This document shows positions 2,146-64,000 of a DNA stretch of 64,000 nucleotides, one piece after another. A program made the position numbers and the translations under genes. This DNA comes from Octopus vulgaris. Taxonomy: Eukaryota. Below the pieces are notes generated by a model. The model had not been told where the DNA came from. It made no database searches and was given only the letters and a program-made list of their open reading frames with translations. The stretch's first letter is position 1. Each line of letters starts with the position of its first letter. The DNA lies in contig OX597832.1 of the NCBI GenBank assembly GCA_951406725.2, forward strand, positions 44,764,001 to 44,828,000, written 5' to 3'.

Positions 2146-3197
2146 GTACAAAGTAAGATAGGGGTTATGAGGGTAACCCACTATGGGATATCAGTTATCC
2201 AATATATTGCTGGTGAAGCACCCAAATGCCAAATACATAAATGCTTATAATTGCAATGCAATTAATTCATTTATTGTATCGGATTGGCGAAGGTAAACAA
2301 GGACAGAAAAATGGATTAAGTCGATTACATCGACCCCAGTGCGAAACTGGTACTTAATTTATTGATCCCGAAAGGATGAAAGGCAAAGTCGACCTCGGCA
2401 GAATTTGAACTCAGAACGCAATGGCAGACGAAATATTCTGAGTTCAAGTTCAAACTCCGCCGAATGGCATGAATTTATATAATTCAGATGGATTATGATG
2501 TACTGAGTGATGTATGCAAAAAAAAAAAAAAACCCTTGATAAATTGAAATTGAAATTCATCTTTTAGTTAGAGAATTAGTTTAGTTAACACAGTTATCAA
2601 GAAAAGGTACAAGATCCTCAAGAAATGTTGACACAGACCATCACTTCTGTCTTCTTTCCAGCTACTCCCATCCACCCCAATATACTGAGGAGTAGCCATG
2701 TAGCTCTCTATAGCAAGACACCCATGCTTGTTTCTCCATCATACTTCAGCCTCTCAACACCTGGCACAAAGAGTGATGAGATAAATTCTTGTGATACTTG
2801 CAAGTTGTTGATTTGAGATCATATTAAAAGCTATACAGTTTTGGCATGTTGGCAAGTAGCTGGTATGCTGTTATTAGCTTATTGTCTATGAATGTGAGCG
2901 TAATTTGTTTTTAATAAGTGAATGAGGAAAGAATAGATCACTGGCTTTAACAAGGCCAGTAATAATCACTGTGATGGGTGAAAGATTTCATTTCCTTATT
3001 GAAGGCTTTTGTTAAGGCCTTTTAATAAGTGTGCAATAAAGTATGAGAAAAAGGGATAGTATTAAGTGAAGGATGTGAACCATGTTTAGTGGTTGGAAAT
3101 GGTGTGTAAGGCTTAGTTACATCAAGAATGAATTGAGTATTTTTAGGGAGAAATAAAATTATAAGGTTGTGTCTGGTTTCTAATAACATTGTTAAAT

Positions 3198-3600
3198 TCC
3201 CTTTAAGGGACTGTCATGTTAAGTTGACATTATACAACCACTCTATCGCTCCACCACCGCTCATGTCTCTTTGAGACATTTAGAAATTCAATATTTCTAA
3301 TTACGGTGACCAGTGAATAGATTTCACTGTAAATATATATATTTGTGAAGGCTTGGCAAAGTATCTCATCTAGCAGGACTTGCAACCCTGGACTGATGAC
3401 GGGCAAGACCCAGAAACATGCATGTCTTCAGGTTGCTAGTCCTAGCTGGTGGAGGTGCTTGCCTCCCCTTTGCAAATATAAGGACACAGGAAATGTGTCA
3501 AAGCCGACAGGAAGCGTCGATGCTTCCTAGGGCTAAACAGCGGTGGTGTAATTCCCTTTATGGGACTGTCACGTTAAGTTGACTGTATACAACCACTCTA
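3198..3600 (+). mobile_element. Retrozyme-like non-autonomous retroelement, copy 1 (355-nt unit plus about 50 nt terminal redundancy)
   Basis: 3196-3246 is repeated at 3551-3601 (period 355). The flanking direct repeat TTGTTAAAT occurs at 3189-3197 and 3601-3609. It has an internal hammerhead, many short hairpins and no credible ORF. Confidence 0.75.
3375..3443 (+). ncRNA. Type I hammerhead ribozyme
   Basis: CTGATGA (3393-3399), helix II GGG-caaga-CCC, GAAA (3413-3416), palindromic helix III ACATGCATGT and GTC triplet (predicted cut after 3426). Long helix I: aggacttgcaacc(c)tgga / ttcaggttgctagtcct. Confidence 0.85.
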
Positions 3601-3879
3601 TTGTTAAATCTACATATAGAAAAAGAAGTACTGTTTCATATGTACTATCATGCACATACACACAAAATCCACCACAGCTACCTCTCACACAAACACACCC
3701 TTTCCAAGCAATTCCTAATGATTAATCAGTCAAGTACAGACATATCCAAAATAATTAACAGATAATTAGGAAAGGATAGCTTCTACGAGGAAGGGCGTCC
3801 AGCTGTAAAAACATTGATATTAGAAAAAACAGAAACATCAAATCTATGCCAGCAAGGAAATTAAAATCTTCAATATATA

Positions 3880-13365: not shown

Positions 13366-15336
13366 TATAGATTGAAATAATAATTCAGACTCAAATTCTT
13401 CACTGAATATCACGGACAATAAATGAGGAGGTGAAGAACAATTATAAAGGCAAGAAATAATGGTATTTGAACAATTTTTAACTACAATAAAGATTACTCA
13501 AAAACAATACTATATAACAATGAAATAATTTCCATACTGTACAAATAGAAAAAGTACTAAGCTTACAAAGAATAAGTCCTGGGGTCAATTTGTTTGACTA
13601 AAGGTGGTGCTCCAGCATGGCTGCAGTCAAATGACTGAAACAAATAAAAGAATAATATATCTGTATATTTGTATGCAAGCTCCATTATTTTTCCACTATG
13701 AGCACTATTTTCCCATCTTCAGAATAAGTAGTGTAAGCTTATGTAATTGCTACTTCTAAAAAGAGCCACACACACACATACATACACACATCTATACAAA
13801 ACTTCTTCACCCAAAGGAAAGAATTCTGAACTGTTTCTTCAATGTGCATCTATCTCTATGAAAGAAACAGATGCATTTGAAGTAAATGAACAGTGTGCAT
13901 TACTCAGATAACTGCTTTAATATCGCATCAGTTGAAAAGAATCACCATAGGACAGATATATAGGACGACGTTCAAAAGGTTTTCAATAATGCCTGTCAGG
14001 TATGTGTTTCCAAACATGATTTCAGAAACCCCCACAATTCATTGGTTCTTTGTAATATCAATATCTTACTTTTGTATTATCTATCAGTTTCTTCATTCTA
14101 TATGGTGATTGTTAAGCAGGTCAGTCAGTAAATACTGAAATCTTGTCAATTTCTGAAATTTCGTATCAGTTCTTTTGTTTCAAAATTGTTAACACACACT
14201 TGCTCTCCAGATATTTCAAGTTTTAATATCTTTCTTTTGAGTGGAATCATATAGCAGAATGGCGGATTAAATGCTTTGCAGAGGATTGTTATAGACCTTT
14301 AGATTCCAAGTTCAAATCATACACAGTTCATCCTTTTCGTGTTTAATAAAATAGATACATCATCATCATCATCGTTTAACATCTGTTTTCCATGCTAGCA
14401 TGGGTTGGACGGTTCAACTAGGGTCTGGGAAGCCAGAAGGCTGCACCAAGGCTCCAGTCTGATCTGGCAGTGTTTCTACAGCTGGATGCCCTTCCTAACA
14501 CCAACCACTCCGTGAGTGTAGTGGGTGCTTTTTACATGCCACCAGCAGAGGTGCCAGGGGAGGCTGGCAACGGCCACGATCGGTTGGTGATTTTTACGTG
14601 CCACTGGCTCGGAAGCCAGTCAGGGTGGCACTGGCATCGACCATGTATGGATAGTGCTTTTTACGTAACACCAGCACAGGTGCCAGGGGAGGCTGGCAAC
14701 GGCTATGATCGGTTAGTGGTTTTTATGTACCACCGAGGTCAATTAATTTGACAATGCCATCTCCTTCAAATTTGTGACATTTTGCTTAATGAAATCAATA
14801 TCTACCTTACAAGAGAAACAGGTTGGCAAAAGTAATACAGCAATACAACAAAATATATAACACTATTTATCTAACAAATAGGTCATACCAGAAATAGGTG
14901 GGAACACAAATATTTGACAACTCAAAAAGTGTTCATGAGAGCGTGAAGGTTACAGTCAATGATTTGCAAGCTTCTTAACCTCATGGTGACTGTGTTGTTA
15001 AGAAGCTTGCTTCCCAAAGATGCAGTCTTCAGTTCAATTCTACTGCATGGTACCTTATTAGTAGATTTGGTTGATAGAAGCTTAACGAGGCCTGCCATAT
15101 AAGTGTGTGTGTTTGCGTGTGCCCTTGTCTAGACATCACGTGATCGTTTTAAGTGGGCATCATTGTCATACAAGTGAAGTTGTTTATTTTGAGTCTTGTG
15201 TAAAAACAGGTCTAGCTTTAGGGAAATAATACCTTACTTGAAAACAGGTGAGTGGAAGGGAATATGGTTTTATGATAATGTTAGTCTATGGTCTAATAAA
15301 AAGGTATATGACATGAATGTATCAAGTATAGGCATA

Positions 15337-32505: not shown

Positions 32506-32790
32506 CATTGAAATTTCACTGAAAATTTATATATATATTTACGAAGTCAAGACAGATATCTTCAGCTAGCAAGCCTCTGCTACTCTAGACTGATGATGGG
32601 CAAAGACCCTGAAACATGTGTGTCTCTAGATGCAGGCCTAGCTGTTGGGGGTATTTGTCTCCCCTTCGTAAATATATAAGGACACAGGAAATGTGTCGAA
32701 GCCATCAGGAAGCGTTCGATGCTTCCTAGGGCTAAACAGTGGTGGTGTAATTCCCTTACTGTCACGTTAAGTTGACAGTATACAACCACT
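32506..32790 (+). mobile_element. Retrozyme-like element, copy 2 (5'-truncated, diverged)
   Basis: Collinear homology with about 3320-3597 and the same 3' end (tatacaaccact). The direct repeat CACTTATTCTATT occurs at 32493-32505 and 32787-32799. Confidence 0.72.
32570..32642 (+). ncRNA. Type I hammerhead ribozyme, copy 2
   Basis: tctaga-CTGATGA(32590-32596)-t GGG caaaga CCC t-GAAA(32611-32614)-catgtgt-GTC(32622-32624)-tctaga. Confidence 0.8.
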
Positions 32791-34629: not shown

Positions 34630-35012
34630 CCGTGCCGGTGGCACGTAAAAAGCACCATCCGATTGTGGCCGTTGCCAGCTTCGTCCGACCCCCGTGCTGG
34701 TGGCATGTAAAAAGCACCATCCGATTGTGGCCGTTGCCAGCCTCGTCTGGCCCCTGTGCCGGTGGCATGTAAAAATCACCATCCGATTGTGGCCGTTTGC
34801 CAGCCTCGTCTGGCACCTGTGCCGGTGGCACATAAAAAGCACCCACTAGACTCACAGAGTGGTTGGCGTTAGGAAGGGCATCCAGCTGTAGAAACACTGC
34901 CAGATCAGACTGGAGCCTGGCGTAGCCTTCTGGCTTCCCAGGCCCCAGTTGAACCGTCCAACTCAAGCTAGCATGGAAAGCGGACGTTAAACGATGATAA
35001 TGAAGATGATGA
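34630..35012 (+). mobile_element. SINE family C with internal tandem subrepeats of about 63 bp
   Basis: gtgccggtggcacgtaaaaagcaccatccgattgtggccgttgccagc repeated about 3 times, followed by the family C 3' end. Confidence 0.85.
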
Positions 35013-46444: not shown

Positions 46445-47285
46445 GTCGAATGGCTTGGCAGAAACGTTAGCACACCGGGCGAAATGCGTAGCCGTATTTC
46501 GTCTGTCGATACGTTCCGAGTTCAAATTCCGCCGAGGTCGACTTTGCCTTTCATCCTTTCGGGGTCGATTAATTAAGTACCATTTACGCAATGGGAGTCG
46601 ATGTAATCGACTTAATCCCTTTGCCTGTCCTTGTTTGTCCCCTCTGTGTGTAACCCCTTGTGGGTAGTAAAGAAATAAGAAACGTTAGCACGCCGGGCGA
46701 AATGCGTAGCCGTATTTCGTCTGTCGATACGTTCCGAGTTCAAATTCCGCCCAGGTCGATTTTGCCTTTCATCCATCCTTTCGGGGTCGATTAATTAAGT
46801 ACCAGTTACGTACTGTGGTCGATGTAATCGACTTAATCCCTTTGTCTGTCCTTGTTTGTCCCCTCTGTGTTTAGCCCCTCGTGGGTAGTAAAGAAATAGG
46901 TATTTCATCTGCCGTTACGTTCTGAGTTCAAATTTCGCCGTGGTCGACTTTGCCTTTCATCATTTCGGGGTCGATTAATTAAGTACCAGTTACGCACTGG
47001 AGTCGATGTAATCGACTTAATCCCTTTGTATGTCCTTGTTTGTCCCCTCTGTGTGTAGCCCCTTGTGGGTAGTAAAGAAATAAGAAACGTAGCCGTATTA
47101 ATGTCTGTCGATACGTTCCGAGTTCAAATTCCGCCCAGGTCGACTTTGCCTTTCATCCTTTCGGGGGTCGATAAATTAAGTACCAGTTACGCACTGGGGT
47201 CGATGTAATCGACTTAATCCCTTTGTCTGTCCTTGTTTGTCCCCTCTGTGTTTAGCCCCTCGTGGGTGGGTAGTAAAGAAATATA
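46445..47285 (+). mobile_element. Tandem array of about 4 SINE family B units (Meta-type core)
   Basis: tRNA-like head plus GTCGACTTTGCCTTTCATCCTTTCGGGGTCGAT..AAGTACC, resembling the MetaSINE central domain, repeated head-to-tail. Confidence 0.85.
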
Positions 47286-48365: not shown

Positions 48366-49762
48366 GTCGTTGTCGTCGTCCTCATCACCATCATCTTTTT
48401 AGTGTCCACTTTTCCATGCTAGCATGGGCTGGATGGAGTTTACAAGGGAAATTTTTCTCTGACTGGATGCCTTTCCTGTTGCTAACCATCGCCTGTTTCC
48501 AAGTAAAGTAATATTTTCCCATGGCGCAGACGTATTCTTGCAGAATGTAGGAAATGAATTACACTGCTTGTAAAACAGGGACATTCATTTACAACTGTCA
48601 CATGATATCGAGACAAGGAGATACAAACATACTCTCAAACATACATATACGAGTCATCATGATTATGATGATCATCATCATCATTTAATGTCTGTTTTCC
48701 ATGCTGAAATGGGTTGGGTGGTTTTACAGAAGCTGGTAAGGCTGAGGGCTGCACCAGGCTCCCATTGTCTGTTCTGGCATGGTTTCTATGGCTGGATGCC
48801 CTTCCTAATGCCAGCCACTTTGCAAAGTGTACTGGGTGCTTTTTATGTGACACCAGCACTGGTATCAATTCTACTGTGGTGGTCAGGTCTTCTTGAGAAC
48901 AGCAAGGTGCTAGACATCTTGCTCCTTTGTCAAGGTGCCAAACATCTTGGTATATGTGTGTGTGTATATGTATGTTAAATATCTACATGATGGGCTTCTT
49001 TCAGTCTCCATCTACCAAATCCTTTCATAATGGTTTGGTCAGCTCAGGGTTAAGTAGAAGACATTTTTTCAAGGCGCCATACAACGGGATTGAACCCAGG
49101 AAAAATGCAATTAAGAAGCAAACTTCTCAACCACCCACCCACTCTGAAAACAGAATCGTTACCTATTTCTATATTACCCACAAGGGGCTAAACATAGAGG
49201 GGACAAACAAGGACAGACATAGGTATTAAGTCGATTACATCGACCCCAGTGCGTAACTGGTACTTAATTTATTGACCCTGAAAGGATGAAAGGTAAAGAA
49301 TCATTACCGCGACCGATAAAGTACTTGGCAGCATTTCATTTGTTGTTACATTCTAAGTTAAAATTCCACTGAGGTTGACTTTGTCTTTCATCCTTTTGGG
49401 GGTCAATAGAATAAGTACCAGTTGAGCACAGGGGTCAATTTAATTGACTTACTCCCTCTCCCAAAATAACTGTCCTTGTGCCAAAATTTCCCTTGCCACA
49501 GACCTGTAAGAAAGAGGCTATTTTGAACCTGCCGCTTCTTGATGTGACATCATTTTCTTCCCCTGCCCCTTCCAGTCCCTTTCTGATGTCACAACCTCTC
49601 CCTTCCAGTCACACATCATTCCTCCACAATATATTAAGAAAAGAACCTACCGACTATATTTTTACAAATAGCCTTAGTCTCTACAAAATCTTGTGAGTGG
49701 GTTTCATAGGCAGAAGCTAAAAAAAGAAGCCTGTTATTTATGTATGTGTATGTGTGTTGTGG

Positions 49763-50512
49763 TGGAGGTGCGTGACTTAGCGGTTAGGGAGTCAGCACCA
49801 TGATCGTAAGATTGTGGTTTCGATTCCTGGACCGGGCGACGCGTTGTGTTCTTGAGCAAAACACTTCATTTCACGTTGCTCCAGTTCACTCAGCTGGCAA
49901 AGATGAGTAACGCTGCGTTGGACTGGCGTCCTGTCCAGCTGGGGAACACATACGCCATAGAAACCGAGAAACCAGGCCCATGAGCCTGGCTAGGCTTTAA
50001 AAGGGCGCAAGGAGGCGCATGGCTTAGTGGTTAGGGTGTCAGCACCATGATCATAAGATTGTGATTTCGATTCCTGGACCGGGTGACGCGTTGTGTTCTT
50101 GAGCAAAACACTTCATTTCACGTTGCTCCAGTCCACTCAGCTGGCAAAAATGTGTAACGTTGTGGTGGACTGGCATCCTGTCCAGCTGGGGAACACATAC
50201 GCCATAGAAACCGGGCCCACGAGCCTGGCTAGGCTTTAAAAGGGCTCATTTATTATTGTGGAGGCGCGTGGCTTAGTGGTTAGGGTGTCAGCACCATGAT
50301 CGTAAGATTGTGATTTCGATTCCTGGACCGGGTGACGCGTTGTGTTCTTGAGCAAAACACTTCATTTCACGTTGCTCCAGTTCACTCAGCTGGCAAAAGT
50401 GAGTAACGCTGCGATGGACTGGCGTCCCGTCCAGCTGGGGAACACATACGCCATGGAAACCGGAAAACTGGACCCATGAGCCTGGCTAGGCTTTAAAAAG
50501 GGTGCATTTATA
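49763..50512 (+). mobile_element. Three head-to-tail tRNA-derived SINEs, family D (V-domain-like)
   Basis: Each unit of about 250 bp starts GGAGGCGCGTGGCTTAGTGGTTAG, has a B box and contains GCGATGGACTGGCGTCCCGTCCAG. Relatives at 33413-33710 and 52527-52660. Confidence 0.85.
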
Positions 50513-53578: not shown

Positions 53579-54639
53579 TCTGTGAGTTTAATGCATCAAA
53601 GAAGAGAAATAGATTGACAAGTCTATTAATTAGCATCTGCCAAAAACAAAGTAAGTTTGTCTATTTACCAATACTGATCGATCAATTATTGTAATTTGTT
53701 TATAATCCAGCACAGATGATCCTCCCTGTAAGCTTTTAGTGGTGTTCAAGAGTTTTTCATCCATGAAGGTCATTCAAACTGCTGAAGTTTTACCTGGTAA
53801 GAACGAAACTAACCTTTATTGTTCAGTGGAAATATTCCTTAATGTAGACAGGTCCCTTCACTAACAAACTGCCCATGTCTGTTATACAAACATGTGCCCT
53901 ATGTCTTCGTACATTAAATTCTTTATTCAAAACGAGGTAATTAATATAGCATTTTTTTTAGCATCTTTCACATATAATTTTCTCTTCCTGCTAGAATAAT
54001 TCTCAATGTCTTTTATGCTCTTTTATTTAGCAGATATTGTTGTAATTATTTTGTGTTCATTGTAAAGCGTAACGCGAAATTTTGAATCCGGTTAAAGTCT
54101 AATATTCTTTATTGAAAATGACATGATTTGTGAATGATGCAAAATTATATTATACTAATGACAGAAAAACGTCAGATCTCATTTTAAATAAAGAATTTAA
54201 ATTAAGTGGTTGTTTGTCTCCAATTATCGCATTAAACATCGTTTCACTGTCGGCTAAACAGGGATTTATTATGTGGCAGAAGAATTCCATTGCATTACAA
54301 ACATTAGTCTCATTTTTACTGCACAAAATTTCACCTATTTGAATAAACTTCCTCAATGTTAAAATATTGAAACATTATCTGAGAAAGGCAATTGAAGAGG
54401 TATTAAATTAAAATAGTCATCTATGTATCACACTCAATATATATACATCAAGTTACTCCTGTGTTTGTTCAGAGACAACATCTCTTATGGACATGCTGTG
54501 TTTAAAGACAGAATACATATCAGAGGAAAATGAAAAATCCTCCTAGCAGTGGATAGCAAATACACCAGATACATTTTGTTTAGGTGGGCCTTATGAATCG
54601 CATGTACTCACTGTCAGCTGTTTACTTAGATGGTATTCA

Positions 54640-55217
54640 AAACAGTGAATAAAAAAAAATTACTGATGTTGCAAATAAGCCACCTGGCAGAATAAAAATC
54701 CAGTATATGCAATCCAAGCACTGTCAGCTGTATACTTTGAAGAGGTTTGTCTCCTCTGGTATAGAAAACAGTGAATAAAAAAAATTACTGATGTTGCAAA
54801 TAAGCCACCTGGTAGAATAAAAATCCAGAATATGCAATCCAAGTACTGTCAGCTGTATACTTTGATGAGGTTTGTCTCCTCTGGTATAGAAAACAGTGAA
54901 TAAAAAAATTTACTGATGTTGCAAGTAAGCCACCTGGCAGAATAAAAATCCAGTATATGCAATCCAAGCACTGTCAGCTGTATACTTTGATGAGGTTTGT
55001 CTCCTCTGGTATAGAAAACAGTGAATAAAAAAATTTACTGATGTTGCAAGTAAGCCACCTGGCAGAATAAAAATCCAGTATATGCAATCCAAGCACTGTC
55101 AGCTGTATACTTTGATGAGGTTTGTCTCCTCTGGTATAGAAAACAGTGAATAAAAAAATTTACTGATGTTGCAAGTAAGCCACCTGGCAGAATAAAAATC
55201 CAGTATATGCAATCCAA
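54640..55217. repeat. 125-bp tandem repeat, about 4.6 copies
   Basis: Near-identical units; ORF-track hits recur at 54660, 54785, 54910 and 55035. Confidence 0.95.
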
Positions 55218-55574
55218 TCATTGTTTAATGTCCATTTTCCATGCTGGCATGTATTGGACAGTTTGACAGGAGCTGGCCAGCTCGAGAGCTCTCCAGGCTC
55301 CAATTATCTCTTTTGGCATGGTTTCTATGGTTGGATGCCCTTCCTAATGCCAACCACTTCACAGATGGTGCTGGGTACTTCTTATGTGCTACCAGCATGG
55401 GTGCTTTTGCATGGCATTGGCACAAGTGCATTCTACATGGCACCAGCATGAATGCATTTTATGTGGCACCAGCATCTGCAAACAGAAAAAAGACTCTCAG
55501 TTGGGAGAGGGAGTAGGGGGTACGGCAATAAAAGACATGCCTATATATATGAATGGCCACAATTTTACATAGCC

Positions 55575-59611: not shown

Positions 59612-60220
59612 AGGGCAACGAGCTGGCAGAAACGTTAGCACACCGGGCGAAATGCTTAGCGGTATTTCGTCTGCCGCTACGTTGTGAGTTCAAATTCCGC
59701 CGAGGTTGACTTTGCCTTTCATCCTTTTGGGGTCGATAAATTAAGTACCAGTTACGCACTGGGAGTCGATGTAATCGACTTAATACCTATGTCTGTCCTT
59801 GTTTGTTCCCTCTGTGTTTAGCCCCTTGTGGGTAGTAAAGAAATAGGTATTTCGTCTGCCGCTACGTTCTGTGTTCAAATTCCGCCGAGGTCGACTTTGC
59901 CTTTCATCCTTTCGGGGTCGATAAATTAAGTACCAGTTATGCACTGGTTCGATGTAATCGACTTAATCCGTTTGTCTGTCCTTGTTTGTCCCCTCTGTGT
60001 TTAGCCCCTTGTGGGTAATAAAGAAATAGGTATTTCGTCTGCCGCTACGTTCTGTGTTCAAATTCCGCCGAGGTTGACTTTGCCTTTCATCCTTTCGGGG
60101 TCGATTAAATAAGTACCAGTTTTGCACTGGGGTCGATGTAATCAACTTAATCCGTTTGTCTGTCCTTTTTTGTCCCCTCTGTGTTTAGCCCCTTGTGGGT
60201 AGTAAAGAAATAGGTATTTG
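59612..60220 (+). mobile_element. Tandem array of 3 SINE family B units
   Basis: One full head followed by repeats of about 185 bp. Solo fragments also occur at about 2290-2460 and 49160-49480. Confidence 0.85.
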
Positions 60221-60859: not shown

Positions 60860-63800
60860 CAGAGTATGTCCAGGATAAAATTATCCAGTATATCTTTTCC
60901 TTTCCCAAGAGAGTAGAGGGTATGATTTGAGGAAAATTTGCTTGCTATTTCTAGCAGATCAAGCAAATATATAGAGCCTCTCTCATTTAGAGTATGCCCA
61001 GGATTAAATTATCCAATATAGCCTTTCCTTTCCCAAGAGAGCAAAGGGTATGATTTGAGGAAAATTTGCTTGCTATTTCTAGCAGATCAAGCAAATATAT
61101 AGAGGCTCTCTCATTTAGAGTATGTCCAGGATAAAATTATCCAATATATCCTTTCCTTTCCCAAGAGAGTAGAGGGTATGATTTGAGGAACATTTGCTTG
61201 CTATTTCTAGCAGATCAAGCAAATATATAGAGGCTCTCTCATTTAGAGTATGTCCAGGATAAAATTATCCAATATATCCTTTCCTTTCCCAAGAGAGTAG
61301 AGGGTATGATTTGAGGAACATTTGCTTGCTATTTCTAGCAGATCAAGCAAATATGTAGAGGCTCTCTCATTTAGAGTATGCCCAGGATTAAATTATCCAA
61401 TATATCCTTTCCTTTCCCAAGAGAGCAAAGGGTATGATTTGAGGAAAATTTGCTTGCTATTTCTAGCAGATCAAGCAAATATATAGAGGCTCTCTCATTT
61501 AGAGTATGCCCAGGATTAAATTATCCAATATATCCTTTCCTTTCCCAAGAGAGCAAAGGGTATGATTTGAGGAAAATTTGCTTGCTATTTCTAGCAGATC
61601 AAGCAAATATATAGAGGCTCTCTCATTTAGAGTATGTCCAGGATAAAATTATCCAATATATCCTTTCCTTTCCCAAGAGAGTAGAGGGTATGATTTGAGG
61701 AACATTTGCTTGCTATTTCTAGCAGATCAAGCAAATATATAGAGGCTCTCTCATTTAGAGTATGCCCAGGATTAAATTATCCAATATATCCTTTCCTTTC
61801 CCAAGAGAGCAAAGGGTATGATTTGAGGAAAATTTGCTTGCTATTTCTAGCAGATCAAGCAAATATATAGAGGCTCTCTCATTTAGAGTATGTCCAGGAT
61901 AAAATTATCCAATATATCCTTTCCTTTCCCAAGAGAGTAGAGGGTATGATTTGAGGAACATTTGCTTGCTATTTCTAGCAGATCAAGCAAATATATAGAG
62001 GCTCTCTCATTTAGAGTATGCCCAGGATTAAATTATCCAATATATCCTTTCCTTTCCCAAGAGAGCAAAGGGTATGATTTGAGGAAAATTTGCTTGCTAT
62101 TTCTAGCAGATCAAGCAAATATATAGAGGCTCTCTCATTTAGAGTATGCCCAGGATTAAATTATCCAATATATCCTTTCCTTTCCCAAGAGAGCAAAGGG
62201 TATGATTTGAGGAAAATTTGCTTGCTATTTCTAGCAGATCAAGCAAATATATAGAGGCTCTCTCATTTAGAGTATGCCCAGGATTAAATTATCCAATATA
62301 TCCTTTCCTTTCCCAAGAGAGCAAAGGGTATGATTTGAGGAAAATTTGCTTGCTATTTCTAGCAGATCAAGCAAATATATAGAGGCTCTCTCATTTAGAG
62401 TATGCCCAGGATTAAATTATCCAATATATCCTTTCCTTTCCCAAGAGAGCAAAGGGTATGATTTGAGGAAAATTTGCTTGCTATTTCTAGCAGATCAAGC
62501 AAATATATAGAGGCTCTCTCATTTAGAGTATGCCCAGGATTAAATTATCCAATATATCCTTTCCTTTCCCAAGAGAGCAAAGGGTATGATTTGAGGAAAA
62601 TTTGCTTGCTATTTCTAGCAGATCAAGCAAATATATAGAGGCTCTCTCATTTAGAGTATGCCCAGGATTAAATTATCCAATATATCCTTTCCTTTCCCAA
62701 GAGAGCAAAGGGTATGATTTGAGGAAAATTTGCTTGCTATTTCTAGCAGATCAAGCAAATATATAGAGGCTCTCTCATTTAGAGTATGCCCAGGATTAAA
62801 TTATCCAATATATCCTTTCCTTTCCCAAGAGAGCAAAGGGTATGATTTGAGGAAAATTTGCTTGCTATTTCTAGCAGATCAAGCAAATATATAGAGGCTC
62901 TCTCATTTAGAGTATGCCCAGGATTAAATTATCCAATATATCCTTTCCTTTCCCAAGAGAGCAGAGGGTATGATTTGAGGAAAATTTGCTTGCTATTTCT
63001 AGCAGATCAAGAAAATATATAGAGGTCCTCTCATTTAGAGTATGCCCAGGATTAAATTATCCAATATAGCCTTTCCTTTCCCAAGAGAGCAAAGGGTATG
63101 ATTTGAGGAAAATTTGCTTGCTATTTCTAGCAGATCAAGCAAATATATAGAGGCTCTCTCATTTAGAGTATGCCCAGGATTAAATTATCCAATATATCCT
63201 TTCCTTTCCCAAGAGAGCAAAGGGTATGATTTGAGGAAAATTTGCTTGCTATTTCTAGCAGATCAAGCAAATATATAGAGGTTCTCTCATTTAGAGTATG
63301 CCCAGGATTAAATTATCCAATATATCCTTTCCTTTCCCAAGAGAGCAAAGGGTATGATTTGAGGAAAATTTGCTTGCTATTTCTAGCAGATCAAGCAAAT
63401 ATATAGAGGCTCTCTCATTTAGAGTATGCCCAGGATTAAATTATCCAATATATCCTTTCCTTTCCCAAGAGAGCAAAGGGTATGATTTGAGGAAAATTTG
63501 CTTGCTATTTCTAGCAGATCAAGCAAATATATAGAGGTTCTCTCATTTAAAGTATGCCCAGGATTAAATTATCCAATATATCCTTTCCTTTCCCAAGAGA
63601 GCAAAGGGTATGATTTGAGGAAAATTTGCTTGCTATTTCTAGCAGATCAAGCAAATATATAGAGGTTCTCTCATTTAGAGTATGCCCAGGATTAAATTAT
63701 CCAATATAGCCTTTCCTTTCCCAAGAGAGCAAAGGGTATGATTTGAGGAAAATTTGCTTGCTATTTCTAGCAGATCAAGAAAATATATAGAGGTTCTCTC

Positions 63801-64000
63801 ATTTAGAGTATGCCCAGGATTAAATTATCCAATATATCCTTTCCTTTCCCAAGAGAGCAAAGGGTATGATTTGAGGAAAATTTGCTTGCTATTTCTAGCA
63901 GATCAAGCAAATATATAGAGGTTCTCTCATTTAGAGTATGCCCAGGATTAAATTATCCAATATATCCTTTCCTTTCCCAAGAGAGCAAAGGGTATGATTT
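60860..64000. repeat. 128-bp satellite array, at least 24 copies, running off the window
   Basis: tatgatttgagg starts at 60921, 61049, 61177, 61305 and onward (period 128). Confidence 0.97.

Follow-up and report, generated by a model that had tools for sequence, protein, structure and literature searches.

The stretch of Octopus vulgaris DNA analysed here, hereafter the window, is 64,000 nucleotides long and carries a 355-nt retrozyme unit (family A) at positions 3198-3552. All features of the retrozyme copies given below lie on the forward strand. The unit bears a type I hammerhead motif, identified by sequence and by script, and a fold together with an ORF scan describes it as non-coding and highly structured. 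It is followed by a partial second lap at 3553-3601, which repeats unit positions 1-49 and stops at the 'short' 3' end of the family. The first-pass annotation had proposed that the first ~50 nt recur 355 nt further on, and this is the case: 45 of 49 positions are identical, and the direct repeat 3195-3246/3550-3601 has a spacing of 355 and an identity of 92%. Repeat comparison likewise recovered the proposed target-site duplication (TSD), ATTGTTAAAT, at 3188-3197 on the left and 3600-3609 on the right. It is 10 bp long, above the >4 bp used to recognise retrozyme TSDs, and its first two bases are common with the end of the element. The claimed lack of an ORF holds, as the longest ORF inside 3189-3609 is at most 61 aa. 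A long-range closing helix, seen as an inverted repeat and in the fold, has its 5' arm at 3252-3261 and its partner at 3539-3548. End mapping places the phase at which other copies have their 'long' (tailed) 3' end, unit ~102-106, at 3299-3303, which is internal here. The site at 3365-3386 is an empty target: in other copies it is occupied by a half-LINE cassette with part of the arm duplicated, and the window copy is without this cassette. A second, older and 5'-truncated family member lies at 32513-32790. It consists of unit 124-355 followed by 13-45 (81-94% identical), and it has a hammerhead of variant form and stops at the short 3' end. Tandem arrays are also found in the window at 60861-64000, 54631-55224, 49762-50463, 14525-14734 and 34632-34843, with periods of 128 (24.5 copies, 98%), 125, 249 (with a tRNA-like head) and 62. 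A protein family in the neighbourhood has named relatives in Octopus and Argonauta, as expected for octopus DNA.

The hammerhead has the type I core, with CUGANGA, GAAA and NUH in order and helices I to III. The core CUGAUGA (CTGATGA in the DNA) lies at 3393-3399, GAAA at 3413-3416 and GTC at 3424-3426, where the first-pass annotation had put them. The arms of its long, extended helix I (3370-3392 and 3427-3449; fold and script) pair outward from 3392:3427 with one bulge and one mismatch. Helix II (3400-3412) has three pairs, 3401-3403 with 3409-3411, all of them G-C. It is closed by a C3400.A3412 mismatch where G-C is usual, a detail absent from the first-pass annotation. The stretch 3413-3426 comprises GAAA, helix III and GUC, with the cut predicted after 3426. 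Helix III is the palindrome ACATGCATGT at 3416-3425, again as proposed. The predicted fold of the unit has an energy of -146.7 kcal/mol (z = -9.5; none of 100 shuffles matches it), and a fold as a circle, one of the suggested checks, gave -140.3 (z = -9.6 against 60 shuffles). Most of the hairpins named beforehand occur in the predicted fold, CAGTGAA/TTCACTG only in part. GGAGG/CCTCC is absent, and CCTCC pairs within a long stem instead. The GC content of the unit is 44%, below the 50% that bounds retrozymes, and its 355 non-coding nucleotides with one hammerhead per unit fall within the retrozyme range of 150-450 nt.

A second suggested check went the other way. The Rfam hammerhead search returned zero matches at the gathering score and zero at E<=10, so that the ribozyme is called from its motif and from covariation. 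Compensatory helix changes are present among 112 family hammerheads, a set picked by core motif whose copies are related to one another. Across these, helix II positions are G-C (85-97) or A-U (3-19), the pair of positions 3 and 8 is C3-G8 in 102 copies and U3-A8 in five, and in the main types listed helix III is fully or almost fully self-complementary. The covariation argues for selection on a putative ribozyme fold and for a predicted dimer cleavage of the kind described in PMC4209133. The same source, in its accessible text, calls G10.1-C11.1 highly conserved in hammerheads. Here this pair is C.A in 65 of 112 copies, the window copy included, U-A in 16, A-U in 15 and G-C in 3. The prevalence of C.A counts against the ribozyme explanation. 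For comparison, 8 of 9 Xenopus retrozyme dimers were inactive in vitro according to the part of a recent preprint that was available (bioRxiv 10.64898/2026.07.22.740005). Deletions at the cleavage site were considered as an indel scar and turned out to be helix III subfamily variants.

The window copy has many relatives. A first look gave 2,973 candidates for the family A unit in the 2.8-Gb genome (40 scored). A 22-mer from the 3' end has 754 exact matches and a hammerhead 20-mer has 267, with 0 matches for either control. We mapped the ends of 137 arms at 82 loci (contigs C1-C2 plus one locus on C7), which were taken from 100 listed of the 754 22-mer matches minus two, plus one 20-mer locus; the choice by 22-mer was meant to avoid a bias to long copies. 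The 3' ends fall at unit 38-58 in 62 arms (short), at 88-110 in 56 (long) and elsewhere in 19, which gives two fixed sites ~55 nt apart, and the 5' ends are scattered. The expectation of circularly permuted copies was thus disappointed: ends are not random, and 118 of 137 arms stop at one of the two 3' sites. There are 40 inverted pairs, of which 30 combine a short with a long end, 8 include another end, 2 are long+long (both from one duplicated locus) and none is short+short. TSD-like repeats flank 34 of 76 loci; when flanks were swapped as a control, the count was 10 of 76. Family A is dispersed, and genomic tandem multimers, the object of another suggested check, do occur: four exact loci have two hammerheads, and the longest array has 3.8 units (L130).

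Family B has a unit of 352 nt, is 55% identical to family A and gives 393 exact matches. Its layout is that of family A, with two 3' ends of its own near 45 and 88-91. Tandem multimers, which the window copy does not form, are thus a property of both families, as dimers and up to 3.8 units in A and as at least nine units in B. The family B array (L402-L410, G000:C2:14086533-14089369) has a period of 352 and ~99% identity, and it is a candidate source of unit-length RNA. Several long contigs match unit 268-355 onward only and diverge upstream (window position 3465); these perhaps represent a further related family or a partner element. No new families were found through loose-end motifs of the contig comparison. 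We conclude that the copies are a dispersed animal retrozyme family of a known class, and that the window copy alone is an ordinary member of it and probably dead.

The insertion anatomy points to a type of enzyme. Partial tandems, inverted 5'-truncated partners and a one-sided tail are features of Penelope-like elements (PLEs) in the text available of Craig et al. (bioRxiv 10.1101/2021.04.23.441226), and all three are present here, with 30 of 40 inverted pairs being short+long. The first-pass annotation had named a LINE or Penelope reverse transcriptase (RT) as the probable copying enzyme. The short+long inverted pairs and the two fixed 3' ends point to a Penelope-like RT more specifically than that broad choice, and we regard it as likely that the retrozyme was mobilised in this way.

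The nature of the template can be read from the same arms. Fifty-five of 116 arms span the predicted cleavage site, 17 of 116 are longer than one unit and 3 cross the site twice. No pile-up of 5' ends was found there, the hazard being 0.15 against 0.06-0.24 in neighbouring bins. Since the cut is spanned and 5' ends do not accumulate at it, the template was a circle or a multimer. Of the earlier claim for a circular or multimeric template, mobility and copying beyond one monomer therefore stand, and the circle itself is plausible. The subfamily alleles of redundant laps agree at 139 of 158 diagnostic sites, against ~50% between loci, and those of inverted arms at 185 of 210, against ~0.5 between loci, the lap and arm pairs not being independent of each other. 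This agreement suits a single template. The laps disagree at the other 19 of 158 sites (~12%), with position 33 recurrent. The window copy is among these cases, its two laps having T and G at unit position 33, and a mixed multimer or a template switch fits it better.

One circle does not predict such disagreement, and this leaves an opening for an account with no circle at all, which we consider somewhat unlikely. Here linear multimeric or read-through transcripts would serve as templates, over-unit copies would be uncleaved multimers or template jumps of the PLE RT, and the hammerhead would be slow or vestigial. The disagreeing laps, the C.A at 10.1-11.1 and the lack of a 5' end excess at the cleavage site all suit this account, and Naiad PLEs are described as making partial tandems without a hammerhead in the accessible part of bioRxiv 10.1101/2021.04.23.441226. 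Against it, families that are 55% identical show compensatory substitutions in helices I-III and an exchange of C3-G8 for U3-A8, and this implies selection on the ribozyme fold. Long family A source arrays were not found, although 17 of 116 arms are longer than a unit, and the laps agree at 88% of sites against 50% in controls. Few family A loci are multimers from which a monomer could be released (four exact loci). Family pieces occur in the contigs of organisms A and B (four runs), with the hammerhead half less covered. These contigs have no molecule ends, only 'goes back' joints of the kind that genomic partial tandems give, and the pattern does not speak to a circle in either direction. 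Circular RNA is favoured as the main template.

In other copies a shared sequence of ~1.65 kb, recognised by flank comparison, enters the unit between ~170 and ~190, in the 5' arm of helix I and immediately upstream of the ribozyme core. This cassette has a single ORF of ~460 aa (P0001), stops ~170-300 nt past it and has a tail with AATAAA, which resembles by eye the tails of the complete LINEs of this genome. A protein model (pLDDT 81) predicts two RRM-like domains and a CCHC knuckle. The Atlas score is 0.90 to ZCCHC3-like clusters, VIA-align matches the protein to RRM-type folds at Z ~8, near the common-fold level, and Pfam returns a sub-threshold zinc knuckle only. The dN/dS is 0.13 over residues 20-240 (28 pairs of 8 long open copies). 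The N-terminal ~240 residues (about 10-245) are 28-38% identical to ORF1 of complete LINEs of this genome with APE, RT and zf-RVT domains. No RT-sized ORF, and hence no ORF2, was seen in 12 wide regions. With ORF1 homology, no ORF2, a LINE-like tail and a TSD, the cassette is an L1/Tx1-type half-LINE, the clade being taken from the domain content of the partner LINEs and one distant 'Transposon TX1' match of theirs. The half-L1 elements known as HAL1 have the same ORF1-only build.

The wider protein family of the cassette gives 63,091 first-look candidates. Other ORF1-only subfamilies, many with intact ORFs, lie in tandem arrays or at other repeated targets (L247, L250, L253-L255, L257, L263, L265-L267, L272, L273). 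Complete L1/Tx1-type LINEs with an intact ORF2 of 1,132-1,149 aa form head-to-tail arrays with periods of ~5.87 and 5.28 kb (L367, L369), and such arrays fill small contigs such as C47 and C50. Others adjoin (TC)n, (ATT)n or (TATC)n. A tRNA-like SINE (L307-L336; window 46712-47283 and 59661-60219) has ~37,600 exact tail matches, forms head-to-tail arrays with a period of ~184 and has a 3' tail type in common with the half-LINE superfamily and the L1/Tx1-type LINEs.

A search with the tail of the cassette gave 116 exact matches. The first 30 ends read are not independent, because composites are amplified and some ends lie at the same locus. A retrozyme hammerhead follows in 19 of them, just the arm in 2, the arm plus a further cassette in 4 and unrelated DNA in 5. 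Twenty-five of 30 thus adjoin a retrozyme arm, where target preference is recognised at >20% of flanks (PMC4494074). A 14-25-nt piece of the local host's arm stands on both sides of the cassette in most composites; several composites gave short or spurious matches only. Tandem stacks of cassettes occur where the site has been regenerated, and junction positions differ among subfamilies. The hosts are of several families: cassettes that are 92-95% identical reside in hosts that are 53-63% identical, and the seven cassettes of an outlying host clade need four changes on the cassette tree, their monophyly being rejected (p-AU 8e-8; 31 rows, 7 of 38 having been dropped, six as long branches and one as a compositional outlier). 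The cassette has switched hosts among retrozyme families. Composites of ~2 kb with Penelope-type ends were found at L126, L187, L190, L192, L193, L199 and L208, often with inverted partners. They end at the same short or long sites as the empty units and were therefore reinserted whole. At one locus (L229) an uninterrupted ORF of 463 codons lies between hammerhead cores 2,036 nt apart, the downstream core being altered. It is likely that the cassette inserted repeatedly near the ribozyme and was then carried along.

Could the cassette have spread instead by RT template switching, or by recombination of co-packaged RNAs aided by its own RNA-binding protein? We think this unlikely. The insertion site, at the base of the extended helix I, is conserved between hosts in structure more than in sequence, and families A and B have little sequence in common in their target arms, an unexpected feature if the endonuclease were sequence-specific. 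A cognate LINE with the exact tail or target of the cassette, and thus an autonomous partner, was not found among the 16 regions read; the complete LINEs were tried as cognates and rejected, as they adjoin microsatellites or their own arrays and not a hammerhead arm. In one copy (L194) the 5' end of the cassette resembles a fragment of U1 snRNA, presumably its 5' end. Template switching is nevertheless at odds with the 14-25-nt duplications, which copy the arm of the local host on both sides, and with the tandem stacking at a regenerated site. Both the tail and the ORF1 are of the kind found in target-preferring LINEs of this genome, and the 5 of 30 ends in unrelated DNA show independent insertion. 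A different possibility is that the 2-kb form with the ORF came first and that deletions between its short direct repeats left the empty 355-nt units; this is very unlikely. The composite is indeed mobile as a whole, and its ORF is under purifying selection and in some copies intact. The reading is nonetheless largely refuted by the near-identical cassettes in distant hosts, which reject vertical descent, by the junctions that vary between subfamilies and by the LINE-derived ORF and tail. Repeated insertion of a half-LINE is the preferred account.

The genome has an abundant autonomous Neptune-type PLE, which encodes an RT with a GIY-YIG domain and has many open frames of 781 aa. Its two 3' ends lie ~28 nt apart (a 28-nt optional tail), and one short+long inverted pair was found (L047). 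About 90 nt before its 3' end this PLE carries a degenerate hammerhead, in which helix III is palindromic and U3-A8 is present (L041-L064). No sequence likeness between this PLE and the unit was found, and no homologous terminus was seen in an autonomous PLE among 30 GIY-YIG loci (6,136 candidates). As none of these PLEs shares the terminus of the unit, a putative PLE donor would have mobilised it in trans. No ORF for RT and GIY-YIG stands directly upstream of the unit within the flanks examined, mostly 1.2-1.5 kb. Among 268 (redundant) loci with retrozyme pieces, 5 match Neptune-like proteins and none has such an ORF leading into a unit; at L158, a rejected candidate for this arrangement, a CA-rich stretch and a SINE lie between. 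The first-pass annotation had asked whether all copies might be termini of an autonomous Penelope element, and the loci examined have no such arrangement. That the unit is the pseudo-LTR (pLTR) of an autonomous PLE, with 5'-truncated termini as copies, is the least probable of the readings weighed here: the insertion features are all PLE-type and, in the available part of bioRxiv 10.64898/2026.07.22.740005, 24 of 57 Xenopus retrozyme families show homology to known repeats, nearly all of them PLE termini, but upstream of the octopus unit stands another unit, flank or an ORF1 cassette.

We therefore favour a 355-nt hammerhead retrozyme that is copied by the RT and GIY-YIG enzyme of a PLE and that is host to an ORF1-only half-LINE, with a probability of about 0.75. 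A cycle can be proposed on this basis. Read-through transcripts of the rare multimeric loci would probably self-cleave after GUC, as dimers via the palindromic helix III. A host ligase, by analogy with other animals, may then close the cleaved units into circles. Reverse transcription would begin at either of the two fixed positions, which lie 55 nt from each other, and continue beyond the ligated cleavage site, in some cases through more than a full lap, which would yield 5'-truncated or over-unit copies. If both target strands were primed, two copies in inverted orientation would result, one ending short and the other tailed. A smaller share of the copies, the one in the window possibly among them, probably stems from mixed multimers or from template switches. 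The half-LINE likely arrived by target-primed insertion with the ORF2 of an autonomous L1/Tx1-type LINE, and the duplication made by the cassette would leave the ribozyme arm intact downstream. Whether cassette-bearing retrozymes are also released as ~2-kb circular RNAs that encode their own RRM-zinc-knuckle protein is doubtful. If they are, the 2-kb circle would be a genome-born coding ribozyme circle organised like delta-like and obelisk agents; two unrelated retroparasites would have supplied its parts and a third its retrotransposition. PLE, retrozyme and half-LINE likely form a three-layer parasitism, in which a ribozyme RNA without coding capacity may acquire an RNA-binding gene. The two-end copies would further provide a short, non-coding substrate on which to test the unexplained formation of Penelope 'tails'.

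The retrozyme class and circle-to-more-than-unit copying are already in print, as far as the accessible text of the sources goes (PMC4209133, PMC7229834, bioRxiv 10.64898/2026.07.22.740005). We found no description of the octopus retrozyme families or of the ORF1 cassette in the literature searched, which held few subscription papers. A 2026 annotation of octopus repeats lists active Penelope and L1-Tx1 families and, in the text available, does not mention ribozymes (PMC13282606). Animal retrozymes and their circles are known, and units of 350-390 nt occur in Mytilus mussels (PMC7229834, available text). The non-LTR retrozymes of that source are like family A in unit length (~355 nt), type I hammerhead, GC below 50%, lack of an ORF, TSDs of >4 bp, stable fold and the occurrence of some tandem arrays. 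Unlike them, family A is mostly dispersed and 5'-truncated, its copies have inverted partners and its 3' ends fall at two fixed sites; the portion of PMC7229834 at hand mentions no fixed ends, protein-coding insert or cephalopod.

The proposal that retrozymes are non-autonomous PLE derivatives comes from bioRxiv 10.64898/2026.07.22.740005. In its accessible text, the preprint draws on 35 species (31 vertebrates, 3 insects and 1 coral) and builds its case on co-occurrence and on homology to pLTRs. The octopus case, with no homologous pLTR found, argues from insertion anatomy, and what had been based on co-occurrence and terminal homology is now favoured by this anatomy as well. For EN+ PLEs with hammerhead pLTRs, circle-templated copying of more than a unit has been proposed (PMC4209133; bioRxiv 10.1101/2021.04.23.441226; both as available in part), and the octopus unit has in common with them the partial tandems, the inverted partner, the one-sided tail and the palindromic helix III. 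It differs from those descriptions in that it is without RT and endonuclease, has a long helix I, has a tail of 55 nt against the 30-40 described and carries C.A in place of G-C at 10.1-11.1. Elements of the Tx1 clade target other repeats, Tx1 inserting into Tx1D and SINEU-3 into Mariner-N4 (PMC4494074, available text), and the cassette is like them in its repeat-target preference and TSDs. It differs from Tx1-clade LINEs in that its target is the ribozyme arm of a retrozyme, that it switches between host families and that the resulting composite is amplified with Penelope-type ends.
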